Source: a virus (lineage: Duplodnaviria; Heunggongvirae; Uroviricota; Caudoviricetes). From it: a stretch of 17,705 bases of DNA. The notes under the pieces are model-generated. The model worked only from the letters and a program-made list of their open reading frames with translations. It did no database searches and was not told the origin of the DNA. The position numbers were made by a program, and so were the translations under genes. Positions 2,981 to 17,705 of this stretch are shown piece after piece; positions within the stretch are counted from its first letter, which is position 1; each line of letters begins with the position of its first letter. Where the stretch lies: IMG/VR virus record IMGVR_UViG_2534681773_000018. One strand, given 5' to 3'.

Positions 2981-5900
2981 ATGGGTAAAGGCAGCAGTAA
3001 GGGGCATACCCCGCGCGAAGCGAAGGACAACCTGAAGTCCACGCAGCTGCTGAGTGTGATCGATGCCATCAGCGAAGGGCCGATTGAAGGTCCGGTGGAT
3101 GGATTAAAAAGCGTGCTGCTGAACAGTACGCCGGTGCTGGACAGTGAGGGGAATACCAATATCTCCGGTGTCACGGTGGTGTTCCGGGCCGGTGAGCAGG
3201 AGCAGACACCGCCGGAGGGATTTGAATCCTCCGGCTCCGAGACGGTGCTGGGTACGGAAGTGAAATATGACACGCCGATCACCCGCACCATCACGTCGGC
3301 AAACATCGACCGTCTGCGCTTTACCTTCGGTGTGCAGGCACTGGTGGAAACCACCTCAAAGGGGGACAGGAATCCGTCGGAAGTCCGCCTGCTGGTTCAG
3401 ATACAGCGTAATGGTGGCTGGGTGACGGAAAAAGACATCACCATTAAGGGCAAAACCACCTCGCAGTATCTGGCCTCGGTGGTGGTGGATAACCTGCCGC
3501 CGCGCCCGTTCAATATCCGGATGCGCAGGATGACGCCGGACAGCACCACAGACCAGCTGCAGAACAAAACGCTCTGGTCGTCATACACCGAAATCATCGA
3601 TGTGAAACAGTGCTACCCGAACACGGCACTGGTCGGCGTACAGGTGGACTCGGAGCAGTTCGGCAGCCAGCAGGTGAGCCGTAATTATCATCTGCGCGGG
3701 CGTATTCTGCAGGTGCCGTCGAACTATAACCCGCAGACGCGGCAATACAGCGGTATCTGGGACGGAACGTTTAAACCAGCATACAGCAACAACATGGCCT
3801 GGTGTCTGTGGGATATGCTGACCCATCCGCGCTACGGCATGGGGAAACGTCTTGGTGCGGCGGATGTGGATAAATGGGCGCTGTATGTCATCGGCCAGAA
3901 TTGCGACCAGTCGGTGCCGGACGGCTTTGGCGGCACGGAGCCGCGCATCACCTGTAATGCCTGGCTGACCACACAGCGCAAGGCGTGGGATGTGCTCAGT
4001 GATTTCTGCTCGGCGATGCGCTGTATGCCGGTATGGAACGGGCAGACGCTGACGTTCGTGCAGGACCGACCATCAGATAAGGTGTGGACCTATAACCGCA
4101 GTAATGTGGTGATGCCGGATGATGGCGCGCCGTTCCGCTACAGCTTCAGCGCCCTGAAGGACCGCCATAATGCCGTTGAGGTGAACTGGATTGACCCGAA
4201 TAACGGCTGGGAGACGGCGACAGAGCTTGTGGAGGACACGCAGGCCATTGCCCGTTACGGTCGTAACGTCACGAAGATGGATGCCTTTGGCTGTACCAGC
4301 CGGGGGCAGGCACACCGCGCCGGGCTGTGGCTGATTAAAACAGAACTGCTGGAGACGCAGACCGTGGATTTCAGCGTGGGTGCTGAAGGGCTTCGCCATG
4401 TACCGGGCGATGTCATTGAAATCTGCGATGATGACTATGCCGGTATCAGCACCGGTGGGCGCGTGCTGGCGGTAAACAGCCAGACCCGGACGCTGACGCT
4501 CGACCGTGAAATCACGCCGCCATCCTCCGGTACCACGCTGATAAGCCTGGTTGACGGAAGTGGCAATCCGATCAGCGTGGAGGTTCAGTCCGTCACCGAC
4601 GGCGTGAAGGTGAAAGTGAGCCGTGTTCCTGACGGCGTTGCAGAATACAGTGTGTGGGGGCTGAAGTTGCCGACGTTGCGCCAGCGCCTGTTCCGCTGTG
4701 TGAGTATCCGTGAGAACGATGACGGCACGTATGCTATCACCGCCGTGCAGCATGTACCGGAAAAAGAAGCCATCGTGGATAACGGGGCGCACTTTGACGG
4801 CGACCAGAGCGGCACGGTGAATGGTGTCACGCCGCCAGCGGTGCAGCACCTGACTGCCGAAGTCACCGCAGACAGCGGGGAATATCAGGTGCTGGCGCGC
4901 TGGGACACACCGAAGGTGGTGAAGGGCGTGAGCTTCCTGCTCCGTCTGACCGTAACAGCGGACGACGGCAGTGAGCGGCTGGTCAGCACGGCCCGGACGA
5001 CGGAAACCACATACCGCTTCACACAACTGGCGTTGGGGAACTACAGGCTGACAGTCCGGGCGGTAAATGCGTGGGGACAGCAGGGCGATCCGGCATCGGT
5101 ATCGTTCCGGATTGCCGCACCGGCAGCGCCGTCTCGGATTGAGCTGACACCGGGCTATTTTCAGATAACCGCCACGCCGCATCTTGCGGTTTATGACCCG
5201 ACGGTACAGTTTGAGTTCTGGTTCTCGGAAAAACGGATTGCGGATATCAGGCAGGTTGAAACCAGCGCGCGTTATCTTGGTACGGCACTGTACTGGATAG
5301 CCGCCAGTATCAATATCAAACCGGGCCATGATTATTATTTTTACGTTCGCAGTGTGAACACCGTTGGCAAATCGGCATTCGTGGAGGCTGTCGGTCAGCC
5401 GAGTGATGATGCATCAGGCTATCTGGATTTTTTCAAAGGCGAGATAGGGAAAACCCATCTGGCTCAGGAGCTGTGGACGCAGATTGATAACGGTCAGCTT
5501 GCGCCTGACCTGACTGAAATCAGGACGTCCATAACGGATGTCAGCAATGAAATAACACAGACCGTCAATAAGAAACTGGAAGACCAGAGTGCAGCGATCC
5601 AGCAGATACAGAAGGTTCAGGTTGATACAAATAATAACCTGAACAGCATGTGGGCAGTGAAGCTGCAGCAGATGCAGGACGGACGCCTTTATATTGCGGG
5701 TATCGGTGCCGGTATTGAGAACACCCCTGACGGCATGCAGAGTCAGGTGCTGCTGGCAGCAGACAGGATTGCGATGATTAATCCTGCGAATGGCAACACA
5801 AAGCCGATGTTTGTTGGTCAGGGCGATCAGATATTCATGAATGAAGTGTTCCTGAAACGCCTGACGGCCCCCACCATTACCAGCGGCGGTAATCCTCCGG

Positions 5901-6478
5901 CATTTTCCCTGACATCAGACGGGAGACTGACGGCGAAAAATGCGGATATCAGTGGCAGTGTGAATGCGAACTCAGGAACGCTCAACAATGTCACGATTAA
6001 CCAGAACTGTACGATTAAGGGCATGCTGGAGGCGACCCAGGTCAGAGGAGATTTCGTTAAAGCTGTATCAAAAGCCTTCCCGAAAAAAGTCGGTACGTGG
6101 GGTAACACGGAAACACCAAACGGTACGGTTACAGTCACCATCAGCGATGATCATAACTTTGACCGCCAGATTATTATTCCGCCCATTATTTTTAACGGTA
6201 TAGCGTATGACGATCCGGGGAGCGGAAATAACCCAGGAGGCACGCGATACACGGGTTATGGTTTTGAAGTTCGCAAAAACGGCGTATTAATCGCATCCAG
6301 AGAAACTAAAGGGGCCATTCCCGGTAGTTACAGTGCAGTTATTGATATGCCGAGTGGCAGGGGAAGCGTCACTCTGGAGTTTAAGATTTTCCAGAAAGGC
6401 AATCAGGGGGCAGGCAATATCACCGACTGTACGGTGATTGTGACCAAAAAAGCCGCTTCCGGCATCAGTATTCGTTGA
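2981..6478 (+). CDS. J: Tail tip attachment / host specificity protein J (lambda gpJ-like), 1165 aa
   Basis: 1165-aa ORF beginning [54 protein letters not shown], matching the lambda gpJ N-terminal and central regions. The C-terminal third (receptor-binding region) differs from what I recall for lambda J. Immediately followed by an intrinsic terminator. Confidence 0.93.
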
Positions 6479-6548: not shown

Positions 6549-7148
6549 ATGCGTAAAGTTTGTGCAGCAATTTTGTCCGCAGCCATTTGTCTGGCCGTAT
6601 CCGGTGCGCCTGCATGGGCGTCTGAACATCAGTCCACGCTGAGCGCGGGGTATCTTCATGCCTCGACGAACGTCCCCGGCAGCGATGATCTGAACGGGAT
6701 TAACGTGAAATACCGTTATGAGTTTACGGACACACTGGGGCTGGTGACGTCATTCAGCTATGCAGGAGACAAGAATCGCCAGCTGACCCGTTACAGCGAT
6801 ACCCGCTGGCATGAAGATTCCGTTCGTAACCGCTGGTTCAGCGTAATGGCGGGGCCGTCTGTGCGCGTGAATGAATGGTTCAGCGCGTATGCGATGGCGG
6901 GTGTAGCTTACAGCCGTGTGTCGACTTTCTCCGGGGATTATCTTCGCGTAACTGACAACAAGGGGAAAAAGCACGATGTGCTGACCGGAAGTGATGACGG
7001 TCGCCACAGCAACACGTCTCTGGCGTGGGGGGCTGGCGTGCAGTTTAACCCGACCGAATCCGTGGCCATTGATATTGCTTATGAATGCTCCGGCAGTGGC
7101 GACTGGCGCACTGACGGTTTCATCGTGGGTGTCGGTTATAAATTCTGA
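6549..7148 (+). CDS. lom: Lom-family outer membrane protein (Ail/Lom/OmpX beta-barrel), 199 aa, prophage moron
   Basis: Signal-peptide-like N-terminus (MRKVCAAILSAAICLAVSGAPAWA), C-terminal GVGYKF beta-barrel terminus with terminal Phe, position directly after J as in lambda. Preceded by GAGAGG ribosome-binding site and flanked by terminators on both sides. Confidence 0.9.
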   Translation: MRKVCAAILSAAICLAVSGAPAWASEHQSTLSAGYLHASTNVPGSDDLNGINVKYRYEFTDTLGLVTSFSYAGDKNRQLTRYSDTRWHEDSVRNRWFSVMAGPSVRVNEWFSAYAMAGVAYSRVSTFSGDYLRVTDNKGKKHDVLTGSDDGRHSNTSLAWGAGVQFNPTESVAIDIAYECSGSGDWRTDGFIVGVGYKF

Positions 7149-7201: not shown

Positions 7202-7212
7202 GTGGGGTGAAT

Positions 7213-10107
7213 ATGGCAGTAAAGATTTCAGGTGTACTGAAAGACGGCACAGGAAAACCGGTACAGAACTGCACAATCCAGCTGAAAGCAAAACGTAACA
7301 GCACCACGGTGGTGGTGAACACGCTGGCCTCAGAAAATCCGGATGAAGCCGGGCGTTACAGCATGGACGTTGAGTACGGGCAGTACAGCGTTATTCTGTT
7401 GGTGGAGGGATTCCCGCCGTCACATGCCGGGACCATCACCGTGTATGAAGATTCCCGACCCGGTACGCTGAATGATTTTCTCGGTGCCATGACGGAGGAT
7501 GATGCCCGTCCTGAGGCACTGCGCCGTTTTGAACTGATGGTGGAAGAGGTGGCGCGTAACGCGTCCGCGGTGGCACAGAACACGGCAGCCGCGAAGAAGT
7601 CAGCCAGCGATGCCAGCACATCAGCCCGTGAGGCGGCAACCCATGCGACTGATGCTGCAGATTCAGCACGTGCAGCCAGCACGTCAGCCGGACAGGCCGC
7701 TTCGTCGGCTCAGTCAGCGTCTTCCAGCGCAGGAACGGCATCAACAAAGGCCACTGAAGCCTCAAAAAGTGCTGCCGCTGCAGAGTCCTCAAAAAGCGTG
7801 GCAGCTACCAGTGCCGGTGCGGCGAAAACGTCAGAAACGAATGCCGCAGCGTCAGAACAATCAGCCGCCACTTCTGCATCCACCGCGACCACGAAAGCGT
7901 CAGAAGCTGCCACCTCAGCCCGGGATGCGGCGGCCTCAAAAGAGGCAGCGAAATCATCAGAAACGAACGCATCCTTGAGCGCCAGTAGCGCAGCTTCCTC
8001 GGCAACGGCGGCAGGAAATTCCGCGAAGGCGGCAAAAACGTCCGAGACGAACGCCAGGTCTTCTGAGACGGCAGCGGGACAGAGCGCCTCAGCTGCGGCA
8101 GGCTCAAAAACAGCGGCTGCGTCGTCTGCCAGTGCCGCGTCAACAAGTGCCGGGCAGGCCTCAGCCAGTGCCACCGCCGCCGGAAAATCGGCAGAAAGCG
8201 CCGCATCATCCGCTTCAACAGCCACAACGAAGGCTGGCGAAGCCACTGAGCAGGCCACGGCAGCAGCGAGGTCAGCTTCCGCAGCGAAGACATCCGAAAC
8301 GAACGCGAAAGCGTCGGAAACCCGTGCAGAATCCTCAAAAACGGCAGCGGCATCGTCCGCCAGTTCGGCGGCGTCATCGGCATCATCGGCGTCTGCTTCA
8401 AAAGATGAGGCGACCAGACAGGCGTCAGCAGCGAAGGGCAGCGCCACGACGGCATCCACGAAGGCGACAGAGGCTGCTGGTAGTGCGAAGGCAGCAGCTC
8501 AGAGCAAAAGTACGGCGGAATCTGCAGCAACGCGCGCTGAGACAGCGGCAAAACGGGCAGAGGATATTGCATCCGCCGTGGCGCTTGAGGATGCGAGCAC
8601 GACGAAAAAGGGGATAGTACAGCTCAGTAGTGCGACTAACAGCACTTCCGAGTCACTGGCGGCAACGCCAAAGGCAGTAAAAGCAGCCAATGACAATGCT
8701 GAGAAACGTCTGCAGAAAGATCAGAACGGTGCGGATATCCCTGGCAAAGACACCTTTACGAAAAATATTGGTGCCTGCCGTGCCTTCGGTGGGTCAGTAA
8801 GCACAACAACAGGAAACTGGACGACTGCACAGTTTATCGAGTGGCTGGATTCTCAGGGAGCATTTAACCATCCATACTGGATGTGCAAGGGTTCCTGGTC
8901 TTATGGCAATAATAAAATCATTACTGATACTGGCTGCGGTAATATTCATCTCGCCGGAGCTGTCATTGAAGTAATGGGGATAAAGTCAGCGATGACGATC
9001 CGCATTACCACTCCGACCACATCCAGCGGTGGCGGAACAACCAACGCCCAGTTTACCTATATTAATCACGGAACAGATTATTCACCTGGCTGGCGAAGGG
9101 ACTATAACTCCAGAAATAAGCCAACGGCATCAGAGATCGGGGCGCTACCGTCAGGTGGAACAGCAGTATCATCAGTTAATCTGGCTTCAAAAGGTCGGGT
9201 AGCCGCGCTGACAGACAATACGCAGGGGGCAGCAGGTCTTGAGTTATACGAGGTGTATAACAACGGATATCCAACAACGTATGGAAATATCATTCACCTG
9301 AAAGGGATGACAGCCGTTGGCGAAGGTGAGTTACTCATCGGCTGGAGTGGTACAAGCGGTGCTCATGCTCCGGCATTTATTCGTTCACGACGGGATACGA
9401 CCGACGCAAACTGGTCGCCGTGGGCGCAGCTTTACACCTCGGCTCATCCTCCTGCAGAGTTTTATCCAGTCGGTGCACCAATCCCGTGGCCATCAGATAC
9501 CGTTCCGTCTGGTTATGTCCTGATGCAGGGGCAGACTTTTGACAAATCTGCATACCCGAAACTTGCAGCCGCTTATCCGTCAGGCGTGATCCCTGATATG
9601 CGTGGCTGGACGATTAAGGGCAAACCTGCCAGTGGTCGGGCCGTATTGTCTCAGGAACAGGACGGCATTAAATCGCACACCCACAGCGCCAGCGCATCCA
9701 GTACGGATTTGGGGACGAAAACCACATCGTCGTTTGATTACGGCACTAAATCCACGAATAACATCGGGGCGCATACGCACAGTGTGAGCGGTACAGCCGC
9801 AAGTGCCGGAAACCATACTCATAGTGTCACAGGCGCATCAGCAGTCAGCCAGTGGTCACAAAATGGGTCAGTACATAAGGTAGTGTCTGCGGCCAGTGTG
9901 AATACAAGTGCTGCAGGAGCGCACACTCATAGTGTCAGCGGCACAGCTGCATCTGCAGGTGCTCACGCACATACTGTCGGTATTGGTGCTCATACGCACT
10001 CGGTTGCGATTGGCTCACATGGACACACCATCACCGTTAACGCTGCTGGTAACGCGGAAAACACCGTCAAAAACATCGCATTTAACTATATTGTGAGGCT
10101 TGCATGA
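7213..10107 (+). CDS. stf: Side tail fibre protein (lambda Stf-like), about 964 aa from ATG 7213
   Basis: N-terminus [26 protein letters not shown] matches lambda Stf. The ORF track starts at GTG 7207, but ATG 7213 is preceded by a GGGG run and matches the lambda start. Long Ala/Ser/Thr-rich repetitive segment, a Cys/Trp-containing central domain, and a C-terminal region with repeated GAHxH motifs ending [11 protein letters not shown] as in lambda Stf. Confidence 0.9.
7560..8590 (+). repeat. Imperfect tandem coding repeats (Ala/Ser/Thr-rich, recurring AAKTSETNA / SASTATTKA units) inside stf
   Basis: Recurrent nucleotide motifs such as aaaacgtcagaaacgaatgc / aagacatccgaaacgaacgc and the corresponding peptide repeats. 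The region has few stop codons in any frame, which produces many overlapping alternative-frame ORFs in the track. Confidence 0.6.
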
Positions 10108-10394
10108 TTACGCTCATTCTTTCTGCACCAGTAACCGAAATGGCTGAAGCATTTAAGCGGGTATTTGCAAATGCAGATAATGTGAATATTGTCGGAAAGC
10201 CATTTGAAACAATCAGAGAATTTGACTGCATGGTAAGTGCGGCAAATAGTTTCGGCCTGATGGATGGCGGTGTTGATGCCGCCATTACCACATTCTTCGG
10301 TTCTCAGCTACAGGCCCGCGTTCAGAATCATATTCTTCGTGAATATCTCGGCGAGCAGCCTGTAGGTTCTGCATTTGTGATCCTACCCACGTAA
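10104..10394 (+). CDS. Macro-domain-like protein fragment (putative ADP-ribose binding/processing); 3' end truncated by IS3
   Basis: ATG 10104 overlaps the stf stop (ATGA), suggesting translational coupling. Product contains [21 protein letters not shown], resembling the macro-domain signature (VVNAAN...GGGV..AI). Visibly more AT-rich than stf. The frame runs into the IS3 terminal repeat (from 10378) and stops there, so the last few codons are IS-derived. Confidence 0.45.
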
Positions 10395-10407
10395 TATGGA
10401 CACAGGC

Positions 10408-11274
10408 CTAAGCGAGGTTCTGGTTTTCAAATTGTTCCGGACTGAGGCCGCCACACCAACTGTGCCGCCGCCACCGATTGTAATCACATTCGATATAATT
10501 AAACACCGTTGCCCGCATTATTTCCCGGCTGATAAAGTGTTCTCCATGGATACATTCCACTTTCAGCGAATGAAAGAAGCTTTCCACGCAGGCATTATCG
10601 TAGCAGCAACCTTTTGCGCTCATACTTCCACGCAGATTATGCCGCTTCAGTTGCGCCTGATAATCTGCTGAACAGTACTGGCCTCCACGGTCCGTGTGAA
10701 CGATAACGTTCCGGGGCCTCTTACGCCGCCACAGCGCCATCTGCAGGGCATCGCAGGCCAGTTGCGCCGTCATGCGTGGCGACATTGACCAGCCAATAAC
10801 GGCACGTGACCACAGGTCAATGACCACTGCCAGATACAGCCAGCCTTCATCTGTACGTAAGTACGTGATGTCTCCTGCCCACTTCTGGTTCGGGCCACTG
10901 GCGTAAAAATCCTGCTCCAACAGATTTTCTGACACAGGCAGGCCGTGTGCGCGGTAGCTGACCGGGCTGAACTTCCGGGAGGCCTTTGCCCTCAGTCCCT
11001 GACGGCGCAGGCTTGCCGCCACGGTTTTTACGTTAAAGGGGTAACCCTGAGCACGCAGTTCATCCGTCAGGCGTGGGGCACCGTAACGCTGTTTTGACCG
11101 GGTAAAAGCCGCGAGGACAACGCTGTCGCAGTGTTGGCGGAACTGCTGACGCGTGCTTATCCTTGTCCGCCGCTGACACCACGTATACCAGCCGCTGCGG
11201 GCCACCCGGAGCACGCGGCACATTGCTTTGATGCTGAACTCAGCCTGATGTTTTTCAATAAAGACATACTTCAT
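10408..11274 (-). CDS. insF: IS3 transposase OrfB (DDE integrase-like catalytic domain), 288 aa
   Basis: 288-aa ORF beginning [36 protein letters not shown], recognisable as the IS3 OrfB/InsF sequence. ATG 11272-11274 overlaps the orfA stop in the -1 arrangement typical of the IS3 family. Confidence 0.9.
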
Positions 11275-11569
11275 TTCAGGCGCTTCGCGAAGTATGTCGC
11301 GGCCTTTTGGAGGATAGCCAGCTCTTCATCCCGTTCTGCCAGCTGGCGTTTGAGACGTGCAATCTCGGTAGACATCTCCAGTTCACGTTCAGAAGACGTC
11401 TGCTGATTTTGCTGTTTACTGCGCCAGTTGTAGAGCTGTGATTCATACAGGCTGAGTTCACGGGCTGCGGCAGTAACACCGATGCGTTCAGCAAGCTTCA
11501 GGGCTTCACTGCGAAATTCAGGCGAATGCTGTTTACGGGGTTTTTACTGGTTGATACTGTTTTTGTCAT
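11271..11569 (-). pseudogene. insE: IS3 orfA (InsE-like HTH protein); reading frame appears interrupted in this copy
   Basis: ATG at 11567-11569 opens the expected MTKTVSTSK start and the C-terminal segment ([37 protein letters not shown]) is readable in the frame ending at 11271-11273. No intact ORF joins them in the track: the span is 299 nt (not a multiple of 3) and my hand translation hits an early stop after about 20 codons. Base-level details here are uncertain. Confidence 0.5.
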
Positions 11570-11634
11570 GTGAGTCACCTCTGACTGAGAGTTTACTCAC
11601 TTAGCCGCGTGTCCACTATTGCTGGGTAAGATCA

Positions 11635-11857
11635 CCGGGCAGGTCTGTATTAACCCTGAACATCAGGCTGATGATGTACTGATACAACATCAGGCTAATA
11701 ACCGGTTTCGCCCTGGTTCGCATATACACCGGATTAATCCAGAAAATCCTGTAGGTAATGTCATCTCTGGCGCACATAGCCACGGAAGTAGCATCGTTAT
11801 TGGTGCTCACACCCATACGCTCAATAAACAATATTCTGTCTCTGATATTAAGTAGAG
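11635..11857 (+). pseudogene. 3' remnant of a second tail fibre gene (His-rich GAHxH C-terminal repeat region), truncated at the IS3 boundary
   Basis: The frame entering from the IS3 end encodes ...[30 protein letters not shown] and stops 8 nt before the tfa start. It resembles, but is not identical to, the GAHTHSV.../[16 protein letters not shown] repeats at the stf C-terminus. It sits where a fibre gene 3' end is expected, directly upstream of tfa. Confidence 0.45.
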
Positions 11858-11863
11858 GTGAAC

Positions 11864-12439
11864 ATGGATTTCAGAATGAGTGAACAACCACGGACCATAA
11901 CAATTTATAATCTGCTGGCCGGAACTAATGAATTTATTGGTGAAGGTGACGCATACATTCCGCCTCATACAGGTCTGCCAGCAAACAGTACCGATATTGC
12001 ACCGCCAGATATTCCGGCTGGTTTCGTGGCTGTTTTCAACAGTGATGAGTCATCGTGGCATCTCGTTGAAGATCATCGGGGTAAAACGGTTTATGACGTG
12101 GCTTCCGGCGACGCGTTATTTATTTCTGAACTCGGCTCATTACCGGAAAATGTCACCTGGTTATCCCCGGAAGGGGAGTTTCAGAAGTGGAACGGCACAG
12201 CCTGGGTGAAGGATACGGAAGCAGAAAAACTGTTCCGGATCCGGGAGGCGGAAGAAACAAAAAACAGCCTGATGCAGGTAGCCAGTGAGCATATAGCGCC
12301 GCTTCAGGATGCTGTGGATCTGGAGATCGCAACGGAGAAAGAAACCTTGTTGCTGGAAGCCTGGAAAAAGTATCGGGTGTTGCTGAACCGTGTTGATACA
12401 TCAACTGCACCGGATATTGAATGGCCAGCCCTACCGTAG
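11864..12439 (+). CDS. tfa: Tail fibre assembly protein (lambda Tfa-like), about 191 aa from ATG 11864
   Basis: Product [62 protein letters not shown] ... [45 protein letters not shown] closely matches lambda Tfa. GAGGTG ribosome-binding site about 5 nt upstream of ATG 11864 (the ORF track starts at GTG 11858). Confidence 0.9.
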
Positions 12440-12515
12440 GGTAAGATATATAAATTCTATAATTAGAAGTATCTTTCCATTTAAGGCTAGGAAGGGAGGC
12501 TTGGAAAACGTAAGG

Positions 12516-12540
12516 AATCTCACACCGAGATTATTTTTAT
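12516..12540 (+). terminator. Weak hairpin plus T-run between the convergent tfa and invertase genes (possible terminator)
   Basis: aatctc (12516-12521) / gagatt (12527-12532) with loop acacc, followed by atttttat. The stem is short and AT-rich and overlaps the invertase stop codon. Confidence 0.25.
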
Positions 12541-13127
12541 ATATCAGGTGTCTGATTTTTTGCTTTAGCTCTTAAAATGGTTTGCCGCGAGGTTTTGAAT
12601 TCTTGGGCAATGTCACTTATATTTATACCTGACTTAATTTGCTCTAGTACCCTCTGTATTTGTTCATCATTTAACACAGGTGGGCGACCAAATCGCTTTC
12701 CTGCGCCCCGTGCTCTTAATATCCCTGAATGAGTACGCTCAAGTAAAAGGTCTCGCTCAAATTCAGCGACTGCTGAAATTACTTGCATCATCATTTTTCC
12801 AGGTGGACTGGTCAGGTCAACGCCCCCCAATGCTAAGCAATGCACTTTGATACCTGCTTTGGTCAGTTGTTCCACCGTTTTACTGATATCCATTGGATTA
12901 CAACCGAGGCGATCCAGTTTTGTGACAATCAATGCATCACCTCTTTTCAGTCGATCAAGCAACTGGTTAAAACCAGGACGCTCACTGGTTGCTGCTGAGC
13001 CGCTAATTTGTTCTTCAATTATTTGCTGAGATTTGATGTTAAAACCTGCACTTTCGATTTCCCGACGTTGATTTTTGGTTGTCTTTTCCAGAGTTGATAC
13101 CCGACAGTAAGCATAAATTCGAGACAT
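12537..13127 (-). CDS. Serine recombinase, Gin/Hin/Pin/Cin-type DNA invertase (resolvase/invertase family), 196 aa
   Basis: N-terminal catalytic motif YAYCRVST (active-site Ser), conserved [19 protein letters not shown] and GRPP motifs, and a C-terminal HTH-like tail. It aligns along its length with Gin/Hin as I recall them. Located next to tail-fibre/tfa genes, as pin, gin and cin are. Confidence 0.85.
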
Positions 13128-13445
13128 AGTGAGATCTTCTATACGAAATTGGTGTACATATCATAATGCATCTCAGAAAATAATTTTGATTATTTTTGTA
13201 CATATTTGTATGTACACGTTCGAAAATAAACGAATGCGTATGCAACCCCGTAATTTTGGTGAGACCCAAAATCGATTTTGTGAAAAATGGCCTTAACTCG
13301 GTTTGTTTTTCGAGTTCCGGGCGGACTCAAGGAAGAAGAATAGTGTTGCGTGTTATTTTAACCAGATTTCAAGTTGTTTGGTCGTGGAAAAGTGGAGCAA
13401 AATGTTGTTAAAGTGGAAAAATGATAAAAAAGTAAGTTTATTATA

Positions 13446-13712
13446 TTACATTTTACCATTTAAATTTTTGTTGTCTTTAAGAACTGATATCGCTGTTTGT
13501 AATAATTCTTTGTTATCCAGCCATGACTTTTTCTTTATGTTTCCTTCAATGTAATCAAGCAATGTTCTGGTATTGATAGGTCTTCCCTGTTTTGCTACTT
13601 CCACTACAGCATCCCCTAGGATAATTCTTACTTCAGGAAGCTGCGCAGGGAACCACTTTAGGGTGTCTTTTGATTTCATGAAGATATTCCTTAAAATATT
13701 ATTGATTTTCAT
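13446..13712 (-). CDS. Hypothetical small protein (77-88 aa), AT-rich, no recognisable family
   Basis: ORF on the - strand. The second Met (ATG 13677-13679) is preceded by an AAGGAA ribosome-binding site and is the more plausible start. Very AT-rich. I recognise no motif, and coding status is uncertain. Confidence 0.35.
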   Translation of the reverse strand: MKINNILRNIFMKSKDTLKWFPAQLPEVRIILGDAVVEVAKQGRPINTRTLLDYIEGNIKKKSWLDNKELLQTAISVLKDNKNLNGKM

Positions 13713-14180
13713 TGCGATATTGTATGTCTGATTCAGGATATGTTGACTTATACATCGGTTTTGTCTGGGTTATTGGATATGCCAATCCCTAATTTTATTA
13801 GAGCATGACTAAAAATGCTGAATATGATAAGGAGCGAAGTGATTATCAGTATGCTGTTCATATAGCCTCGAATTAGTAATGTGTTATATATGATATAGTT
13901 GACAATTTTTATCCTGGGTGTTCTTAAAGTTCGTAGATAAACATTGTCGTTTCAGGTATACAGGAATGCTAACAGGTGGCGGCAAAAATCAGGCGGTTTA
14001 TGGCGCAAGCTGAAGTGTCAACTGCAAACTATCTTATGCAGAGACTCTACACGGATTGGGTTTAAAAGTATACATAGATAACAGTTTTTATCTGAAGAAG
14101 AAAAATATCAAGGTGATATAGCCTATATGCCTATGATGCGGAGGAATGAATGTGATGGGAGTGATGTATCTGAATAGTTG

Positions 14181-14220
14181 AAAAACCGCAGACACGCCTT
14201 ATGCAAGAACGTGCTGCGGT
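14181..14220 (-). terminator. Rho-independent terminator for the - strand methyltransferase gene
   Basis: Stem ccgcagacacg (14186-14196) / cgtgctgcgg (14210-14219) with one bulge. On the - strand the stem is followed directly by TTTTT (complement of aaaaa 14181-14185), a few nt downstream of the methyltransferase stop. Confidence 0.5.
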
Positions 14221-14226
14221 TGGATG

Positions 14227-14895
14227 CTATTTTTTCCCTGAAGCGGAAAACATTACTACAGTACCTTGAACCTTGGTTTTAACATTCTCGAAATACTCTG
14301 AGAGTATATGTGTTAAGCCTTCTTCGGAATCTTTTGTGTTTGAAAAGATGCCTTTCTGATTGTAAATGCGCATCAGTTTTTGACCGAAGCTATTGTGCAC
14401 AATTCCATCGCCAAGAATTGTGGCTCCGTATAGAGTTCCATCGTCAGTTAAGGCCTGCGCCGCATTGCGTATTACACAGCTTTTTGTAGATATATTTCCA
14501 GGCAGGCAGTGAAGAAGGTAAAACATGGAAATGGAATCAAATTGACCATGTAACGCCGCGGGATAAGGTTCAAAAACATCATGGTTAATTTTATGTTTAA
14601 TTTTTGATTCCCCAGCCCTTGTAGATGCCGCGTTCAGGCTAGCTTCGTTCAAATCCATTAAAGATATCAGACTACTCTCAGGTACGTGAGTAAGGTAAAA
14701 CCCAGTTCCAACACCAATATCCAGATGGTTGTTACCTAAATGTTCCAGAAAGTGTGGAAGAAGGTGTTCCTTTGTAGGACATCCCCATGCAAGCCGATTT
14801 GATACTCCCAAAACCCACCAGTCATAAAGCTTTAGGGTAAGTGGTGTGTAAATTTTAGCCCCATCATCTGTGTTTTTTTTCATTAATTTCACCAT
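14227..14895 (-). CDS. ybcY: Class I SAM-dependent methyltransferase (ybcY-like), 222 aa
   Basis: Contains the glycine-rich SAM-binding motif LDIGVGTGF. Its position between a tfa gene and a tfaX-like remnant upstream of appY-ompT matches the DLP12 gene order as I remember it. The symbol is assigned by synteny and is not verified. Confidence 0.6.
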   Translation of the reverse strand: MVKLMKKNTDDGAKIYTPLTLKLYDWWVLGVSNRLAWGCPTKEHLLPHFLEHLGNNHLDIGVGTGFYLTHVPESSLISLMDLNEASLNAASTRAGESKIKHKINHDVFEPYPAALHGQFDSISMFYLLHCLPGNISTKSCVIRNAAQALTDDGTLYGATILGDGIVHNSFGQKLMRIYNQKGIFSNTKDSEEGLTHILSEYFENVKTKVQGTVVMFSASGKK

Positions 14896-14951
14896 GTTAT
14901 AGTTTTATTTGTGAATTAAATCAATTATGGCAATGAATTACAAGGGGTTAA

Positions 14952-15212
14952 ATGCTGCCGCAGCATAGCGATATTGAAATAGCCTGGTATGCTTCAATAC
15001 AGCAGGAGCCGAATAGCTGGAAGACCGTCACCACACAGTTCTACATCCAGGAATTCAGTGAGTATATTGCGCCACTGCAGGATGCTGTAGATCTGGAAAT
15101 CGCAACGGAGGAAGAAAGATCGTTGCTGGAAGCCTGAAAAAAGTATCGGGTGCTGCTAAACCGTGTGGACACTTCCGTAGCACCAGATATCGAGTGGCTT
15201 ATTCAACCATAA
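14952..15212 (+). pseudogene. tfaX: Tail fibre assembly gene remnant (tfaX-like): tfa C-terminal homology interrupted by an in-frame stop
   Basis: A 61-aa ORF ends at TGA 15135-15137 in the context EAWKKY (TGG to TGA relative to the intact tfa at 12360). The same frame continues [24 protein letters not shown] to TAA 15210-15212. The 3' roughly 140 nt is a diverged direct repeat of the tfa 3' end (12291-12431). Confidence 0.65.
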
Positions 15213-15753
15213 TAAACAGTATGTATATCATAGGTTATTAATTGTGAGTTTTTTCGGTGTGTTATTTGTTTGATGTTATGCTTTTGCGCCCCAAAAGGTT
15301 GTTTAGATGTATTTTATCAATTGATTTTCAATATCGTTTAATAAAGAAAAATTAAGCAAGCTGGATGTTGGTTTTTTGTTAATTGAATGGTTCTAATAAT
15401 GTTTTTTTACTGTTGTTGAATGTGACTTGATAAGAAATGCAAGTAAAAATGATACTCTTTTTATTTTAAATTCAAACGGTTGACATATATATAGCAAGAG
15501 GTTTCAGGTGCGTTGTAGTGAGTTTATGTTAATAAAAAGTATAGTAAGCGTTGAAAAATGTAACTTTGAAATACGTTAGAATAAAAAACAATATACATAT
15601 AATAATTTAATCTTAAATGAAATTTATTAAAATTTGCAAACTATAATTTTGTGTATAAAAATATAAATGCACATCATCCTGATTATGATTGTGTATTTAA
15701 TTGGTTGTTATTTGACTGCTATCAACTTGTTTTAATTTTATGATAGGTGCAAG

Positions 15754-16502
15754 ATGGATTATGTTTGCTCCGTAGTTTTCATCTGTCAATCATTTGATTT
15801 AATTATAAACAGGAGAGTTATCTCGTTCAAAAAAAATTCATTGTTTATTGTAAGCGACAAAATTAGAAGGGAGTTACCAGTATGCCCCTCTAAACTAAGA
15901 ATTGTTGATATAGATAAGAAAACATGTTTATCCTTTTTTATCGACGTGAATAATGAGCTGCCTGGCAAATTTACTCTTGATAAGAATGGCTATATTGCTG
16001 AAGAGGAACCTCCATTATCGCTTGTTTTTTCTCTGTTTGAAGGGATTAAAATAGCAGACTCACACTCCCTTTGGTTAAAAGAAAGACTATGTATATCCTT
16101 ACTTGCCATGTTCAAAAAACGCGAAAGTGTAAATTCTTTTATACTAACAAATATAAATACATTTACCTGTAAAATTACTGGAATAATCAGTTTTAATATT
16201 GAGCGGCAATGGCATTTAAAAGATATTGCGGAATTGATTTATACGAGTGAAAGTTTAATAAAAAAAGATTAAGGGATGAAGGAACGTCATTTGCTGAAAT
16301 ATTGAGAGATACTAGGATGAGGTATGCAAAAAAACTCATAACTTCAAACTCTTATTCTATCAATGTCGTAGCCCAGAAATGTGGCTATAACAGTACTTCA
16401 TATTTCATATGTGCATTTAAAGATTATTATGGTGTCACGCCATCTCATTATTTTGAGAAAATAATCGGCGTCACAGATGGAATAAACAAAACAATTGACT
16501 GA
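15754..16502 (+). pseudogene. appY: AraC-family transcriptional regulator AppY, interrupted by a frameshift in a poly-A tract (split into 172-aa and 66-aa ORFs)
   Basis: N-terminus [21 protein letters not shown] and its position directly upstream of ompT identify appY. The first frame stops at 16270-16272 right after an A7 run (16260-16266). The second AraC HTH ([24 protein letters not shown]...[23 protein letters not shown]) continues in the +1 frame. The span is 749 nt, one short of a 249-aa gene plus stop. Confidence 0.75.
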
Positions 16503-16751
16503 TAATGTTTATTACAAGTTGTCTACATGTTAATTATAATATTATACAGCGTTTTTTCTGATGTGATATTCTGGAACCATTAATTTGTAATTGGGTTGCT
16601 GTCGCCTATTTTATACATACTATAATTGATGGTTTTCTATGTGATTTAGTTAATAACCTTCTGGGTTTATTTTAAGGGTTAATTGTTACATTGAAATGGC
16701 TAGTTATTCCCCGGGGCGATTTTCACCTCGGGGAAATTTTAGTTGGCGTTC

Positions 16752-17705
16752 TTAAAATGTGTACTTAAGACCAGCAGTAGTGATGAAGTTATAGTTTTCT
16801 ATACCTGCTCCATTTTTGCTGTAGTCTGAAGTGTTATTATTGTGATCATAAAGTGAAGTATTACCTTTTTTATTCGTAACCCGATTCCATGCGCCTTCAA
16901 CATAAACTTTTGCGTTAGGTGTGACGTAATAACCTGCATTGACTGCAACAGAATAGTAATTTTGGTCTTTGACCTTACTGCGATAAGTGATTCTTTTTCC
17001 CGGGTCATAGTGTTCATCGTTATCAGATGATTCCACCCAGCCGCTGTATTTAAATGTGCCACCGAGTTCAAAATCTTCATAACGATAACTTCCAGTCAAG
17101 CCAATGTAGGGCATTTTAAAACGTTGTTTGTAGCCGATTGCCCTTTCTCCATTCGGGAAGGAGCCGATATCATCTCTGAATCCCTCCTCAGAACTGTAGA
17201 TATAGGAACCACCTCTGGCTGTAAAGCTATAACGGCTTTCCTGATATCCGGCCATGAGTCCCAGGCGGTAATTGGGTTCGTTGAGGAGCCAGCCTTTGAT
17301 ATTCAGATCAAATTCGTTGGCATAATTGAGTTGTGTATCAGGGTGTCTACTTTCATCCGTCCAGGTTCCGGGGTTACTGGAATCCATCCAGTCCTGATCG
17401 ACCATATTGCCACCTCGGCTGCCGAGAGTTGTCCAGCCAGCAGCCCCGATAGATATCTGGGGCATCAAATCCCAATTAATTGCACCTTTAATAATTGCAG
17501 CGCTATTGAATTTCCAGTCGAGTTGACTGACTTTTCGGCCTCCTTCTTCGGCTAGATAAACACGCTCTTTTGTTTTTCCGCTCAGAGTTCCAAGACTAAT
17601 GTCCGCATTTATGTTGTCAGGAGTAAACGATAAAGTCTCGGTAGAAGCAAAAGAGCTGATCGCAATAGGGGTTGTCAGGACTATTCCCAGAAGTTTCGCC
17701 CGCAT
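16752..17705 (-). CDS. ompT: Omptin-family outer membrane protease OmpT (protease VII), 317 aa, complete
   Basis: Start codon at 17703-17705 (window edge). Signal peptide MRAKLLGIVLTTPIAISSFA, mature N-terminus STETLSFTPDNINADISLG and C-terminal TTAGLKYTF are recognisable as E. coli OmpT; length 317 aa. Confidence 0.93.
   Translation of the reverse strand: MRAKLLGIVLTTPIAISSFASTETLSFTPDNINADISLGTLSGKTKERVYLAEEGGRKVSQLDWKFNSAAIIKGAINWDLMPQISIGAAGWTTLGSRGGNMVDQDWMDSSNPGTWTDESRHPDTQLNYANEFDLNIKGWLLNEPNYRLGLMAGYQESRYSFTARGGSYIYSSEEGFRDDIGSFPNGERAIGYKQRFKMPYIGLTGSYRYEDFELGGTFKYSGWVESSDNDEHYDPGKRITYRSKVKDQNYYSVAVNAGYYVTPNAKVYVEGAWNRVTNKKGNTSLYDHNNNTSDYSKNGAGIENYNFITTAGLKYTF

Follow-up and report, generated by a model that had tools for sequence, protein, structure and literature searches.

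The right arm of the lambdoid prophage at the DLP12 site consists of J, lom, stf, tfa, accessory cargo, appY and ompT. In the window analyzed here (the whole stretch of DNA, 17,705 nucleotides long), the 3' end of the tail fiber assembly gene tfa recurs downstream of the cargo in a fragment called tfaX. This raises the question of where the second copy came from, and of what the two copies can do to the genes between them. A preliminary description of the sequence had proposed that the copies are diverged direct repeats on which homologous deletion can act, that such a deletion could explain the lack of the invertase in K-12 DLP12, and that tfaX is the remnant of a second fiber/tfa unit from an ancestral invertible segment. 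We consider it very likely, as a whole, that tfaX originated as part of a traveling module, that the 3' segment of tfa is a patch of shared homology, and that cargo can be deleted across the repeats, more plausibly by a Red-type route than through RecA.

The two copies are indeed diverged direct repeats. They can be aligned on the same strand without gaps over 154 nt (82% identity), with a start-to-start spacing of 2773 nt, and the best-scoring core of the alignment is 84% identical (120/143). Only these two copies were found in the window (blastn, E = 2e-40), and between positions 9000 and 17705 their repeat is the longest by far, as the next family measures 40 nt. The boundaries proposed earlier, 12291–12431 and 15063–15203, were correct to within about 10–20 nt at each end, but their register was off by 1 nt. 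The copies represent the conserved 3' segment, i.e., the last ~47 codons, of tail-fiber-assembly genes. In a pairwise alignment, they resemble each other in frame over 47 contiguous codons, and not just in a few conserved codons of otherwise unrelated sequences. The change from TGG in tfa (12362–12364) to TGA in tfaX, which had been noticed before, is real and closes the tfaX open reading frame. The longest perfect run between the copies measures 15 nt, both in the window and in strain C8, as compared with 40 nt in K-12-type pairs, including that of K-12 DLP12 itself. Bracketed by the repeats are a PinQ/R-type recombinase, ydfK, ynaM and the ybcY methyltransferase genes (Table 1); of these, the recombinase, one small ORF and the methyltransferase had already been described, and the ynaM/ynfT gene is an addition.

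Table 1. Features of the prophage right arm, in window coordinates.
Feature	Position	Strand	Basis or remark
tfa, intact tail fiber assembly gene	11864–12439	+	191 aa from the PGAP ATG; ORF list
Repeat copy 1, tfa 3' segment	12272–12425 (core 12283–12425)	+	Repeat search, alignment, blastn
Variable cargo slot (pin–ydfK–ynaM), 1759 nt	12427–14185		blastn breakpoints versus L010, L004, L003, L005
PinQ/PinR-type serine recombinase, 196 aa	12537–13127	−	Pfam Resolvase and HTH_7
ydfK/ynaE-family small gene	13446–13712	−	ORF list; annotation of C8 and PhiR68_2
ynaM/ynfT-family small gene	~13748–13861	−	Annotation transferred from C8
Terminator-like hairpin followed by UUUUU	14186–14222	−	RNA folding
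Class I SAM-dependent methyltransferase, ybcY homologue, intact	14227–14895	−	Pfam Methyltransf_12/23/25/11; annotation
Methyltransferase promoter-like region	14924–14951	−	Reported as overlapped by the first 30 codons of tfaX
tfaX ORF, 61 codons	14952–15137	+	TGA stop at 15135–15137
Repeat copy 2, tfaX pseudogene fragment	15045–15198 (core 15056–15198)	+	Repeat search, alignment, blastn
appY, frameshifted in the window	15754–16504	+	Downstream flank

The annotation of strain C8, whose DNA is 99.9% identical to that of the window, was transferred by adding 5799 to the locus coordinates; the tfa gene is annotated there as encoding a tail fiber assembly protein. An alternative GTG start extends the tfa ORF to position 11858, and its product (11858–12436) is a member of the Caudo_TAP family (PF02413), with residues 74–193 matching profile positions 1–130 of 131, that is, the full-length profile (E = 3.7e-44). 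The read-through translation of tfaX matches profile positions 75–130 only (E = 1.5e-23). With the C-terminal part alone, an in-frame TGA and first 30 codons unlike those of Tfa, tfaX does not encode a complete member of the family, and in RefSeq it is a Tfa pseudogene that lacks the N-terminus and is interrupted by a stop codon (15045–15212 according to PGAP). We also considered whether the N-terminus of tfaX was derived from another class of Tfa, and rejected this, as in a search of 5.8 billion proteins no full-length Tfa shared the first 30 residues of tfaX, and the matches with full coverage were short tfaX-like ORFs only. As to the cargo, PGAP assigns 13446–13679 to ydfK, and the ydfK/ynaE-family ORF had zero matches in a Pfam search. 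The hairpin that lies directly 3' of the methyltransferase stop codon (−22.3 kcal/mol, z = −5.2) was visible by folding only, a consensus terminator scan of 12200–15800 having listed none.

The presence of a serine recombinase of the resolvase/invertase family next to tfa makes it tempting to see in tfaX a leftover alternative tfa (U'-like) of an ancestral Pin-invertible tail-fiber segment. Tail-fiber inversion cassettes do carry a second tfa, and K-12 PinQ, to which the recombinase of the window is 84% identical, is an active invertase for which inversion of the e14 P segment in trans has been reported (PMC12529663). Like the Din-family segments (e14 P, Mu G, P1 C), the window has a serine recombinase beside stf/tfa and a second tfa-derived sequence nearby. 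However, in the Din-family segments alternative stf'-tfa' sets lie inverted between crossover sites, and in e14 the alternative tfa lies, inverted, between the first tfa and pin, whereas tfaX is direct, truncated and located on the far side of the recombinase, past pin, ydfK, ynaM and the methyltransferase gene. Queries with a 26-nt consensus (core AAACC-NN-GGTTT) and with the e14 16-mer gave 0 matches to Din/pix-type crossover sites (pix, gix or hix-like) in the window at up to 3 mismatches, and a single 1-mismatch match to the core, inside the methyltransferase gene, is at chance level. Similarly, no inverted repeats above chance were found around the recombinase gene. In e14, used as a positive control, the crossover sites were detected, with 21-nt arms that are 95% complementary. 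Neither the ORF list nor the repeat search nor the annotation revealed a second stf fragment in the window, such as an alternative stf 3' end, and all the related-locus matches listed are collinear with the window. Moreover, the recombinase is just 36% identical to PinE, Qin has pin with neither the methyltransferase gene nor tfaX, and tfaX with the same breakpoint accompanies the methyltransferase gene in pin-less prophages and phages. The proposal that tfaX is what remains of a second fiber/tfa unit thus finds no support, as tfaX travels with the methyltransferase and not with pin, and we regard it as extremely unlikely.

The 5' breakpoint of tfaX points to a different origin. Its sequence is identical in the tfaX genes linked to appY (in the window and K-12) and in those of other prophages and phages (L003, L005, PhiR26_1), and it was the same in every tfaX copy examined; tfaX with an identical truncation point adjoins the methyltransferase gene also where pin is missing. 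The TGA is present only in a subset of the already truncated copies, namely in the appY lineage, and truncated copies elsewhere have TGG. From the shared breakpoints we infer that tfaX probably stems from a one-time illegitimate event, in which a single non-homologous join would have connected the promoter side of the ybcY methyltransferase cassette to the middle of the tfa gene of another phage; tfaX would then have traveled as a module with the methyltransferase gene. One could also imagine that the 3' end of tfa was duplicated in place in a prophage lineage and decayed later. The L003 locus, in which a 227-nt repeat (88% identity) is found on both sides of the methyltransferase gene, resembles the product of such a local duplication in that each copy takes in the stop codon, 36 nt and the terminator hairpin. 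But the codon differences between tfa and tfaX in the core of the window repeat, 14 synonymous and 6 non-synonymous, are more suggestive of two alleles that had diverged while functional than of a recent duplication in place. Additionally, the same tfaX junction occurs at different integration sites and in different phages, and is therefore old and mobile. A duplication in place is thus unlikely.

The intact TGG version of tfaX, which adjoins the ybcY methyltransferase gene in very many E. coli prophages, deserves separate consideration, as it might encode a working stand-alone C-terminal domain of Tfa, in which case the repeat would be kept by selection and only the allele of the window would be dead. 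Intact ORFs of 82–101 aa that share this N-terminus are very frequent (they form clusters of hundreds, and one was found on ~1000 contigs), a Shine-Dalgarno-like AAGGGG precedes the ATG at 14952 by 4–5 nt, and most of the differences between alleles in the Tfa part are synonymous. However, a synonymous bias can also come about through gene conversion by full-length alleles, and the allele differences in the loci compared are few and confounded by gene conversion. Chance alone may well produce a stop-free stretch of ~35 extra codons, the first nine codons in NC101 show 5 non-synonymous changes versus 1 synonymous, and the appY lineage carries the TGA, to which phage Kati adds a second stop. We therefore consider a functional product quite unlikely. 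If there were one, this putative mini-Tfa might modulate tail-fiber assembly or interfere with the fibers of competing phages, and the methyltransferase and mini-Tfa genes would be a selected two-gene module and not debris. Alternatively, the two tfa 3' segments might be maintained as a cassette-exchange device for cargo.

A deletion between the repeats does not explain why K-12 DLP12 lacks the invertase, as had been suggested, because K-12 retains both repeats and the methyltransferase gene. The right end of DLP12, tfaD'–ybcY'–tfaX'–appY–ompT, occupies the same chromosomal locus as the window, and their tfaX copies, 99.5% identical over 206 nt, agree in the TGA and in the appY flank. It shares with the window the methyltransferase gene and the tfa 3' end, and hence the same direct-repeat pair. 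Unlike in the window, the K-12 tfa lacks its 5' part and is fused to a fragment of a terminase gene, and ybcY carries a frameshift. In cargo, the difference between K-12 and the window is confined to the replacement of 12427–14185 by 36 nt, a separate event in which the repeats were not involved. The same slot is occupied by 36 nt in the K-12 DLP12-type loci (L010, L004 and L003) and by a 2.8-kb catalase/ferritin-like cassette in 2012C-4227 (L005). The breakpoints identified by blastn, 12426/12427 and 14183–14188, are common to the three alternative contents, and the slot thus holds unrelated contents between the same conserved boundaries, as lambdoid accessory (moron) regions do. The hairpin at the methyltransferase end forms its right edge. 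At the DLP12 site, the presence or absence of pin–ydfK–ynaM is thus shown to be a polymorphism of the cargo slot.

The cargo of the window is arranged as at the ends of Qin and Rac (tfaQ/tfaR–pinQ/pinR–ydfK/ynaE–ynfT/ynaM). K-12 Qin is collinear with the window from 11864 to 14235 at ~95% DNA identity, including the terminator hairpin, which is kept at the Qin end in a 50-nt overlap between the Qin-type and K-12-type homology. Past the hairpin, Qin differs from the window in having neither the methyltransferase gene nor a second tfa fragment, and hence no direct repeat. The full layout of the window, tfa–pin–ydfK–ynaM–methyltransferase–tfaX, is present at ~96–97% identity in the viable phages PhiR68_2 (PV340576), Kati (PP925833) and Turner (PP925837), and in PhiR68_2 and Kati it runs on into appY–ompT inside the phage genome. 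These phages differ from the window in carrying another, tfaQ-like, tfa allele, and Kati also in the extra stop in its tfaX.

Contrary to the K-12 case, deletion across the repeats can be recognized in other strains. Deletion products were scored as matches to a chimeric query in a single piece. A hybrid tfa, fused in register to the 3' end of tfaX and followed by the appY flank, was found in 9 of 5426 complete E. coli genomes, as compared with 576 genomes with tfaX and the appY flank, so that the deleted and the undeleted forms, for which a comparison across E. coli strains had been proposed, both exist. In the fused genomes, all the sequence between the repeat copies is gone, whereas the appY flank remains joined to the tfaX copy in every form. 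Relative to the K-12-type form, the span of the fused form is shorter by 1049 nt, the same as the spacing of the K-12-type repeats. The junctions fall into four classes, all of them inside the repeat, and the left arms of these classes match different tfa alleles. These natural variants bear out the view of the repeats as a substrate for homologous deletion. A crossover upstream of the TGA results in a tfa gene with a premature stop, as in class 1, and one downstream of it in an intact hybrid Tfa with a tfaX tail, as in classes 2–4. In class 2 (SFE8 and four others), the left arm is 99.6% identical to PhiR68_2, a phage with the window layout, and the parent of this class therefore very probably carried pin–ydfK–ynaM–methyltransferase. 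None of the nine products demonstrably came from the exact tfa allele of the window. The four junction classes need not represent four deletions, as after one deletion a later exchange with other phages could shift the junction rightwards. The commonest-looking junction sits in the 40-nt perfect block of K-12-type pairs. An artifactual collapse during assembly was also considered as a source of the fused forms, but is unlikely given nine independent complete assemblies, four junctions and a short, diverged repeat.

Structure alone does not give the direction of change, and insertion of cargo into the slot clearly occurs. The fused tfa–appY form could thus be ancestral, the two-copy forms having arisen by insertion of a cassette that brought its own tfa 3' end. 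What argues against this is the polarity of the TGA: the hybrid tfa of class 1 carries it, and because it is otherwise found only in truncated tfaX copies, the truncation predates the TGA, and a full-length hybrid with this stop must be derived, that is, recombinant. The rarity of the fused forms (9 versus 576), their four junction classes and the differing tfa alleles in their left arms also speak against an ancestral state, as does the fact that viable phages and other integration sites harbor the two-copy module. We consider this order of events very unlikely, and retain deletion as the origin of the fused forms.

According to the mechanism that we propose, the conserved tfa 3' segment would serve as a patch of shared homology, at the end of which downstream cargo is swapped. 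With a second copy of the patch further downstream, the cargo in between could be lost through homologous or homeologous recombination, be it inside a single genome or in an exchange with an incoming phage for which tfaX provides the right-hand crossover. Efficient RecA/RecBCD recombination needs a block of perfect identity of ~23–27 bp, and the repeat pair of the window, with its longest perfect run of 15 nt, falls short of this length. Given the 82–84% identity of the copies and the shortness of their perfect runs, RecA-driven deletion between them should be very rare. Annealing by a phage protein of the Red or RecET type is a more likely catalyst than the RecA route; since the window contains no recombination gene for the deletion pathway, we draw here on the literature. 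λ Red recombined sequences with 22% divergence ~100-fold better than RecABCD did (Martinsohn et al. 2008, PMC2327257), and the divergence of the window repeats is within the tolerance of Red reported there. Similarly, recombination of λ with the stf–tfa regions of Rac and Qin was mainly mediated by Red-beta (De Paepe et al. 2014, PMC3945230). As in the present case, these homeologous lambdoid exchanges involved sequences with 4–22% divergence and yielded mosaics with junctions between mismatches. They were, however, experimental, and took place between molecules over ~650–3350 bp, whereas here the homology is 143–154 bp long, and a single element loses the cargo that lies between its two copies.

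The finding is an ordinary case of prophage mosaicism, largely annotated already, and tfaX is a known pseudogene. Literature searches on tfaX/ybcY and on DLP12 tail-fiber deletions turned up no account of the repeat or of its deletion forms; the E. coli papers on tfaX among the results appear to be promoter or transcription-factor studies. The main value of our analysis lies in bookkeeping, and existing concepts are unchanged by it. It explains the K-12 tfaX pseudogene as a traveling fragment tied to the ybcY methyltransferase gene, and shows that the tfa/tfaX repeats occasionally delete cargo, sometimes leaving tfa with a premature stop. It also provides a clean natural case of homeologous recombination shaping the accessory regions of prophages beside appY and ompT, which bears on the differences between strains in the context of OmpT.

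The window is the right-hand arm of a lambdoid prophage occupying the DLP12 site of E. coli; its 11635-17705 part matched strain C8 at 99.9%. Gene assignments (see the table) rest on the ORF list, the C8 annotation, and Pfam. In Pfam comparisons, tfa covered the entire Caudo_TAP profile, and the read-through translation of tfaX, a C-terminal Tfa fragment, covered profile positions 75-130 only, with no Pfam match for the first 30 tfaX codons. RefSeq already listed tfaX, both here and in K-12, as a pseudogene of tail fiber assembly that has an internal stop and lacks its N-terminus. Elsewhere in this arm, a 1256-bp IS3-family element, absent from C8, was inserted between stf and tfa; its transposase has rve and HTH_21 domains. 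Compared with C8 and K-12, where appY is intact (249 aa), the window copy is frameshifted at about codon 172, which makes it a pseudogene unless the shift is a sequencing error. Within stf, where its Phage_fiber repeat and Collar domains lie, there are short tandem-like repeats that have diverged (units of 40 nt, 60-75% identity).

Features of the window and junctions of the hybrid tfa genes, in window coordinates
Feature	Position	Strand	Remark
J	2981-6478	+	
lom	6549-7148	+	
stf	7207-10107	+	
stf tandem-like repeats	9762-9959		
macro-domain gene	10104 to about 11855	+	broken by IS3-family element
IS3-family element	10379-11634		
transposase orfB	10408-11274	-	
tfa	11864-12439	+	
direct repeat, tfa copy	12272-12425		core 12283-12425; TGG 12362-12364
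PinQ/R-type serine recombinase	12537-13127	-	
ydfK	13446-13712	-	
ynaM/ynfT	about 13748-13861	-	
hairpin and U-run	14186-14222	-	
class I SAM methyltransferase (ybcY)	14227-14895	-	
tfaX	14952-15137	+	ORF; PGAP pseudogene 15045-15212
direct repeat, tfaX copy	15045-15198		core 15056-15198; TGA 15135-15137
appY	15754-16504	+	
ompT	16752-17705	-	
class 1 junction	12304-12344		WGI31CT, EM18-18-42; TGA passed to hybrid, annotated "internal stop"
class 2 junction	12398-12399		SFE8 (read from sequence); MIN6, QA-1986 83, ES7, ES8 (placed by identical match scores); hybrid Tfa intact
class 3 junction	12371-12379		Res13-Lact-PER13-34; hybrid Tfa intact
class 4 junction	12386-12393		CFIAFB20190172; hybrid Tfa intact

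A repeat search of the window aligned the conserved 3' segment of tfa with tfaX over 154 nt, without gaps, at 82% identity and a spacing of 2773 nt; in the best-scoring core, 120/143 positions (84%) were identical in a pairwise alignment. Blastn of the copies gave E = 2e-40 and no third copy in the window, and the second-longest repeat family in 9000-17705 measured 40 nt. The alignment thus bore out the diverged direct repeats of the preliminary description, and also the TGG to TGA change that terminates the 61-codon tfaX ORF; the location given there was right, with boundaries off by no more than 10-20 nt. Together, tfa and the already known tfaX fragment account for the repeat in full.

The region upstream of appY, compared among 5426 complete E. 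coli genomes, occurred in several forms. Form A has the window's layout (C8, locus L001). Form B consists of tfa, 36 nt, the terminator, the methyltransferase, and tfaX, without pin-ydfK-ynaM (K-12 DLP12, loci L004 and L010, and many others), and in form C a hybrid tfa runs straight into the 3' end of tfaX and its appY flank (loci L007, L008, L009, L012, and L013). At at least 80% query coverage, tfaX plus the appY flank was matched in 576 genomes, the ynaM-methyltransferase junction (form A, any locus) in 317, the tfa-36 nt-methyltransferase junction (form B type, any locus) in 2228, and the single-piece fused form C in 9. NC101 is another decay form, lacking tfaX and appY: at the same site (L006 4002-6284) it retains nothing but the methyltransferase, ompT, and fragments of an integrase and of tfa, and its homology to the window stops at 14981, upstream of tfaX. 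This ompT-ybcY context is common to several uropathogenic (UPEC) strains (PMC6854850).

Form C is the deletion between the repeats that had been predicted, found in other strains. Its match span equals that of form B minus 1049 nt, the exact repeat spacing in form B. A column-by-column comparison at the sites separating tfa from tfaX distinguished four junction classes. The class 1 junction falls within a stretch of 40 nt over which K-12-type tfa and tfaX are identical; in classes 2-4 the crossover lies downstream of the TGA, and the hybrid ends in a tfaX tail. The class 2 left arm (stf 3' end and tfa) shared 99.6% identity with phage PhiR68_2 and 99.1% with phage Kati, both form A, versus 97.9% with a form-B strain. 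Since this arm is closer to the form-A phages, the class 2 parent most probably carried pin-ydfK-ynaM-methyltransferase, as in the predicted deletion.

The full-length class 1 gene with its TGA could instead be taken for an ancestor. The tfaX 5' truncation point was, however, identical in every copy examined, including copies integrated elsewhere and copies from phages with TGG at the stop position (the ompW-site prophage L003, strain 2012C-4227, PhiR26_1). Because copies still carrying TGG share this breakpoint, the truncation is older than the TGA, so that the class 1 gene must be a tfa/tfaX recombinant, not an ancestor. The rarity of fused genomes (9 vs 576) and the heterogeneous left arms of form C also favor deletion. 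The number of deletions could be lower than the four classes suggest, if a junction was moved rightwards by subsequent exchange with incoming phages; even then, that exchange would be recombination within the same homology patch.

RecA/RecBCD recombination requires roughly 23-27 identical bases and falls steeply with divergence. The longest perfect run in the repeat pair is 15 nt in the window vs 40 nt in K-12-type pairs. Between 22%-diverged sequences, lambda Red is about 100-fold better than RecABCD, largely escaping mismatch editing (PMC2327257), and the stf-tfa exchange of lambda with Rac or Qin proceeds mainly via Red-beta (PMC3945230). Given these short runs and the Red literature, deletion in the window would be possible but rare, most likely during phage replication or on meeting a related phage.

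The same deletion had been offered as a possible reason why K-12 lacks the invertase. As K-12 keeps the tfa 3' end, ybcY, and tfaX, its lack of pin did not arise by deletion between the repeats. Blastn breakpoints confined the difference to 12427-14185 (1759 nt in the window vs 36 nt in K-12), and in strain 2012C-4227 a 2.8-kb catalase/ferritin-like cassette lies between the same two breakpoints. The conserved tfa segment ends at the left one, and the right one is a hairpin just past the methyltransferase stop (-22.3 kcal/mol, z = -5.2), followed by a U-run. This interval is a cargo slot with conserved sequence at its borders, an arrangement usual among lambdoid phages. In 2012C-4227 (L005 1196-4000), manganese catalase and yciE/yciF/yciG-like stress genes replace pin-ydfK-ynaM. 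Homology to Qin (11864-14235) extends through the hairpin and then ends. The hairpin (14186-14235) is also found at the very end of Qin (L011 5315-5373), where the methyltransferase is absent, a hint that the ancestor of Qin-type ends possessed this gene.

The proposal that tfaX is a remnant of an invertible fibre/tfa segment was contradicted by every feature tested: tfaX is direct, not inverted, and lies beyond the recombinase; a second stf end is absent; and the gene linked to tfaX across genomes is the methyltransferase and not pin. Three site searches found no Din/pix crossover site in the window, whereas the 21-nt crossover arms of the e14 control were detected. The recombinase (36% identical to PinE, 84% to PinQ) may be an active invertase, since PinQ has been reported to act in trans on e14, inverting its P segment (PMC12529663); nothing in the window resembles its target.

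In a search of 5.8 billion proteins, all full-coverage matches to the tfaX ORF were short tfaX-type ORFs, and no full-length Tfa had the first 30 tfaX codons. The core copies differed by 14 synonymous and 6 non-synonymous codons, which suggests that the two alleles were working genes while they diverged. In L003, the repeat (227 nt, 88%) comprises the tfa 3' end, stop codon, 36 nt, and hairpin, and its longer copies stand on both sides of the methyltransferase. As the simplest reading, we infer a single non-homologous join, in which the promoter side of a methyltransferase cassette from one phage would have met mid-tfa of another; the methyltransferase-tfaX module would then have spread. Intact ORFs of the tfaX type (82-101 aa; P0005, P0006, P0011, P0022, and P0023) are very common in E. 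coli and fall into clusters with hundreds of members, one of them on about 1000 contigs. At L003 5731-6000, a tfaX-like fragment is followed in the same orientation by a DUF4376 pseudogene fragment, suggesting that the right ends of prophages carry still more layers of gene debris.

The locus is ordinary lambdoid mosaicism, mostly annotated already. Viable phages carry the module in form A (PhiR68_2, Kati, Turner) and in form B (PhiR26_1 and others). In the PhiR68_2 (L017 6890-8842) and Kati (L018 7387-9339) genomes, appY and ompT are also present, adjoining the attachment end. As these viable lambdoid phages carry both, the two host-fitness genes are mobile cargo of live phages, and not only DLP12 relics.
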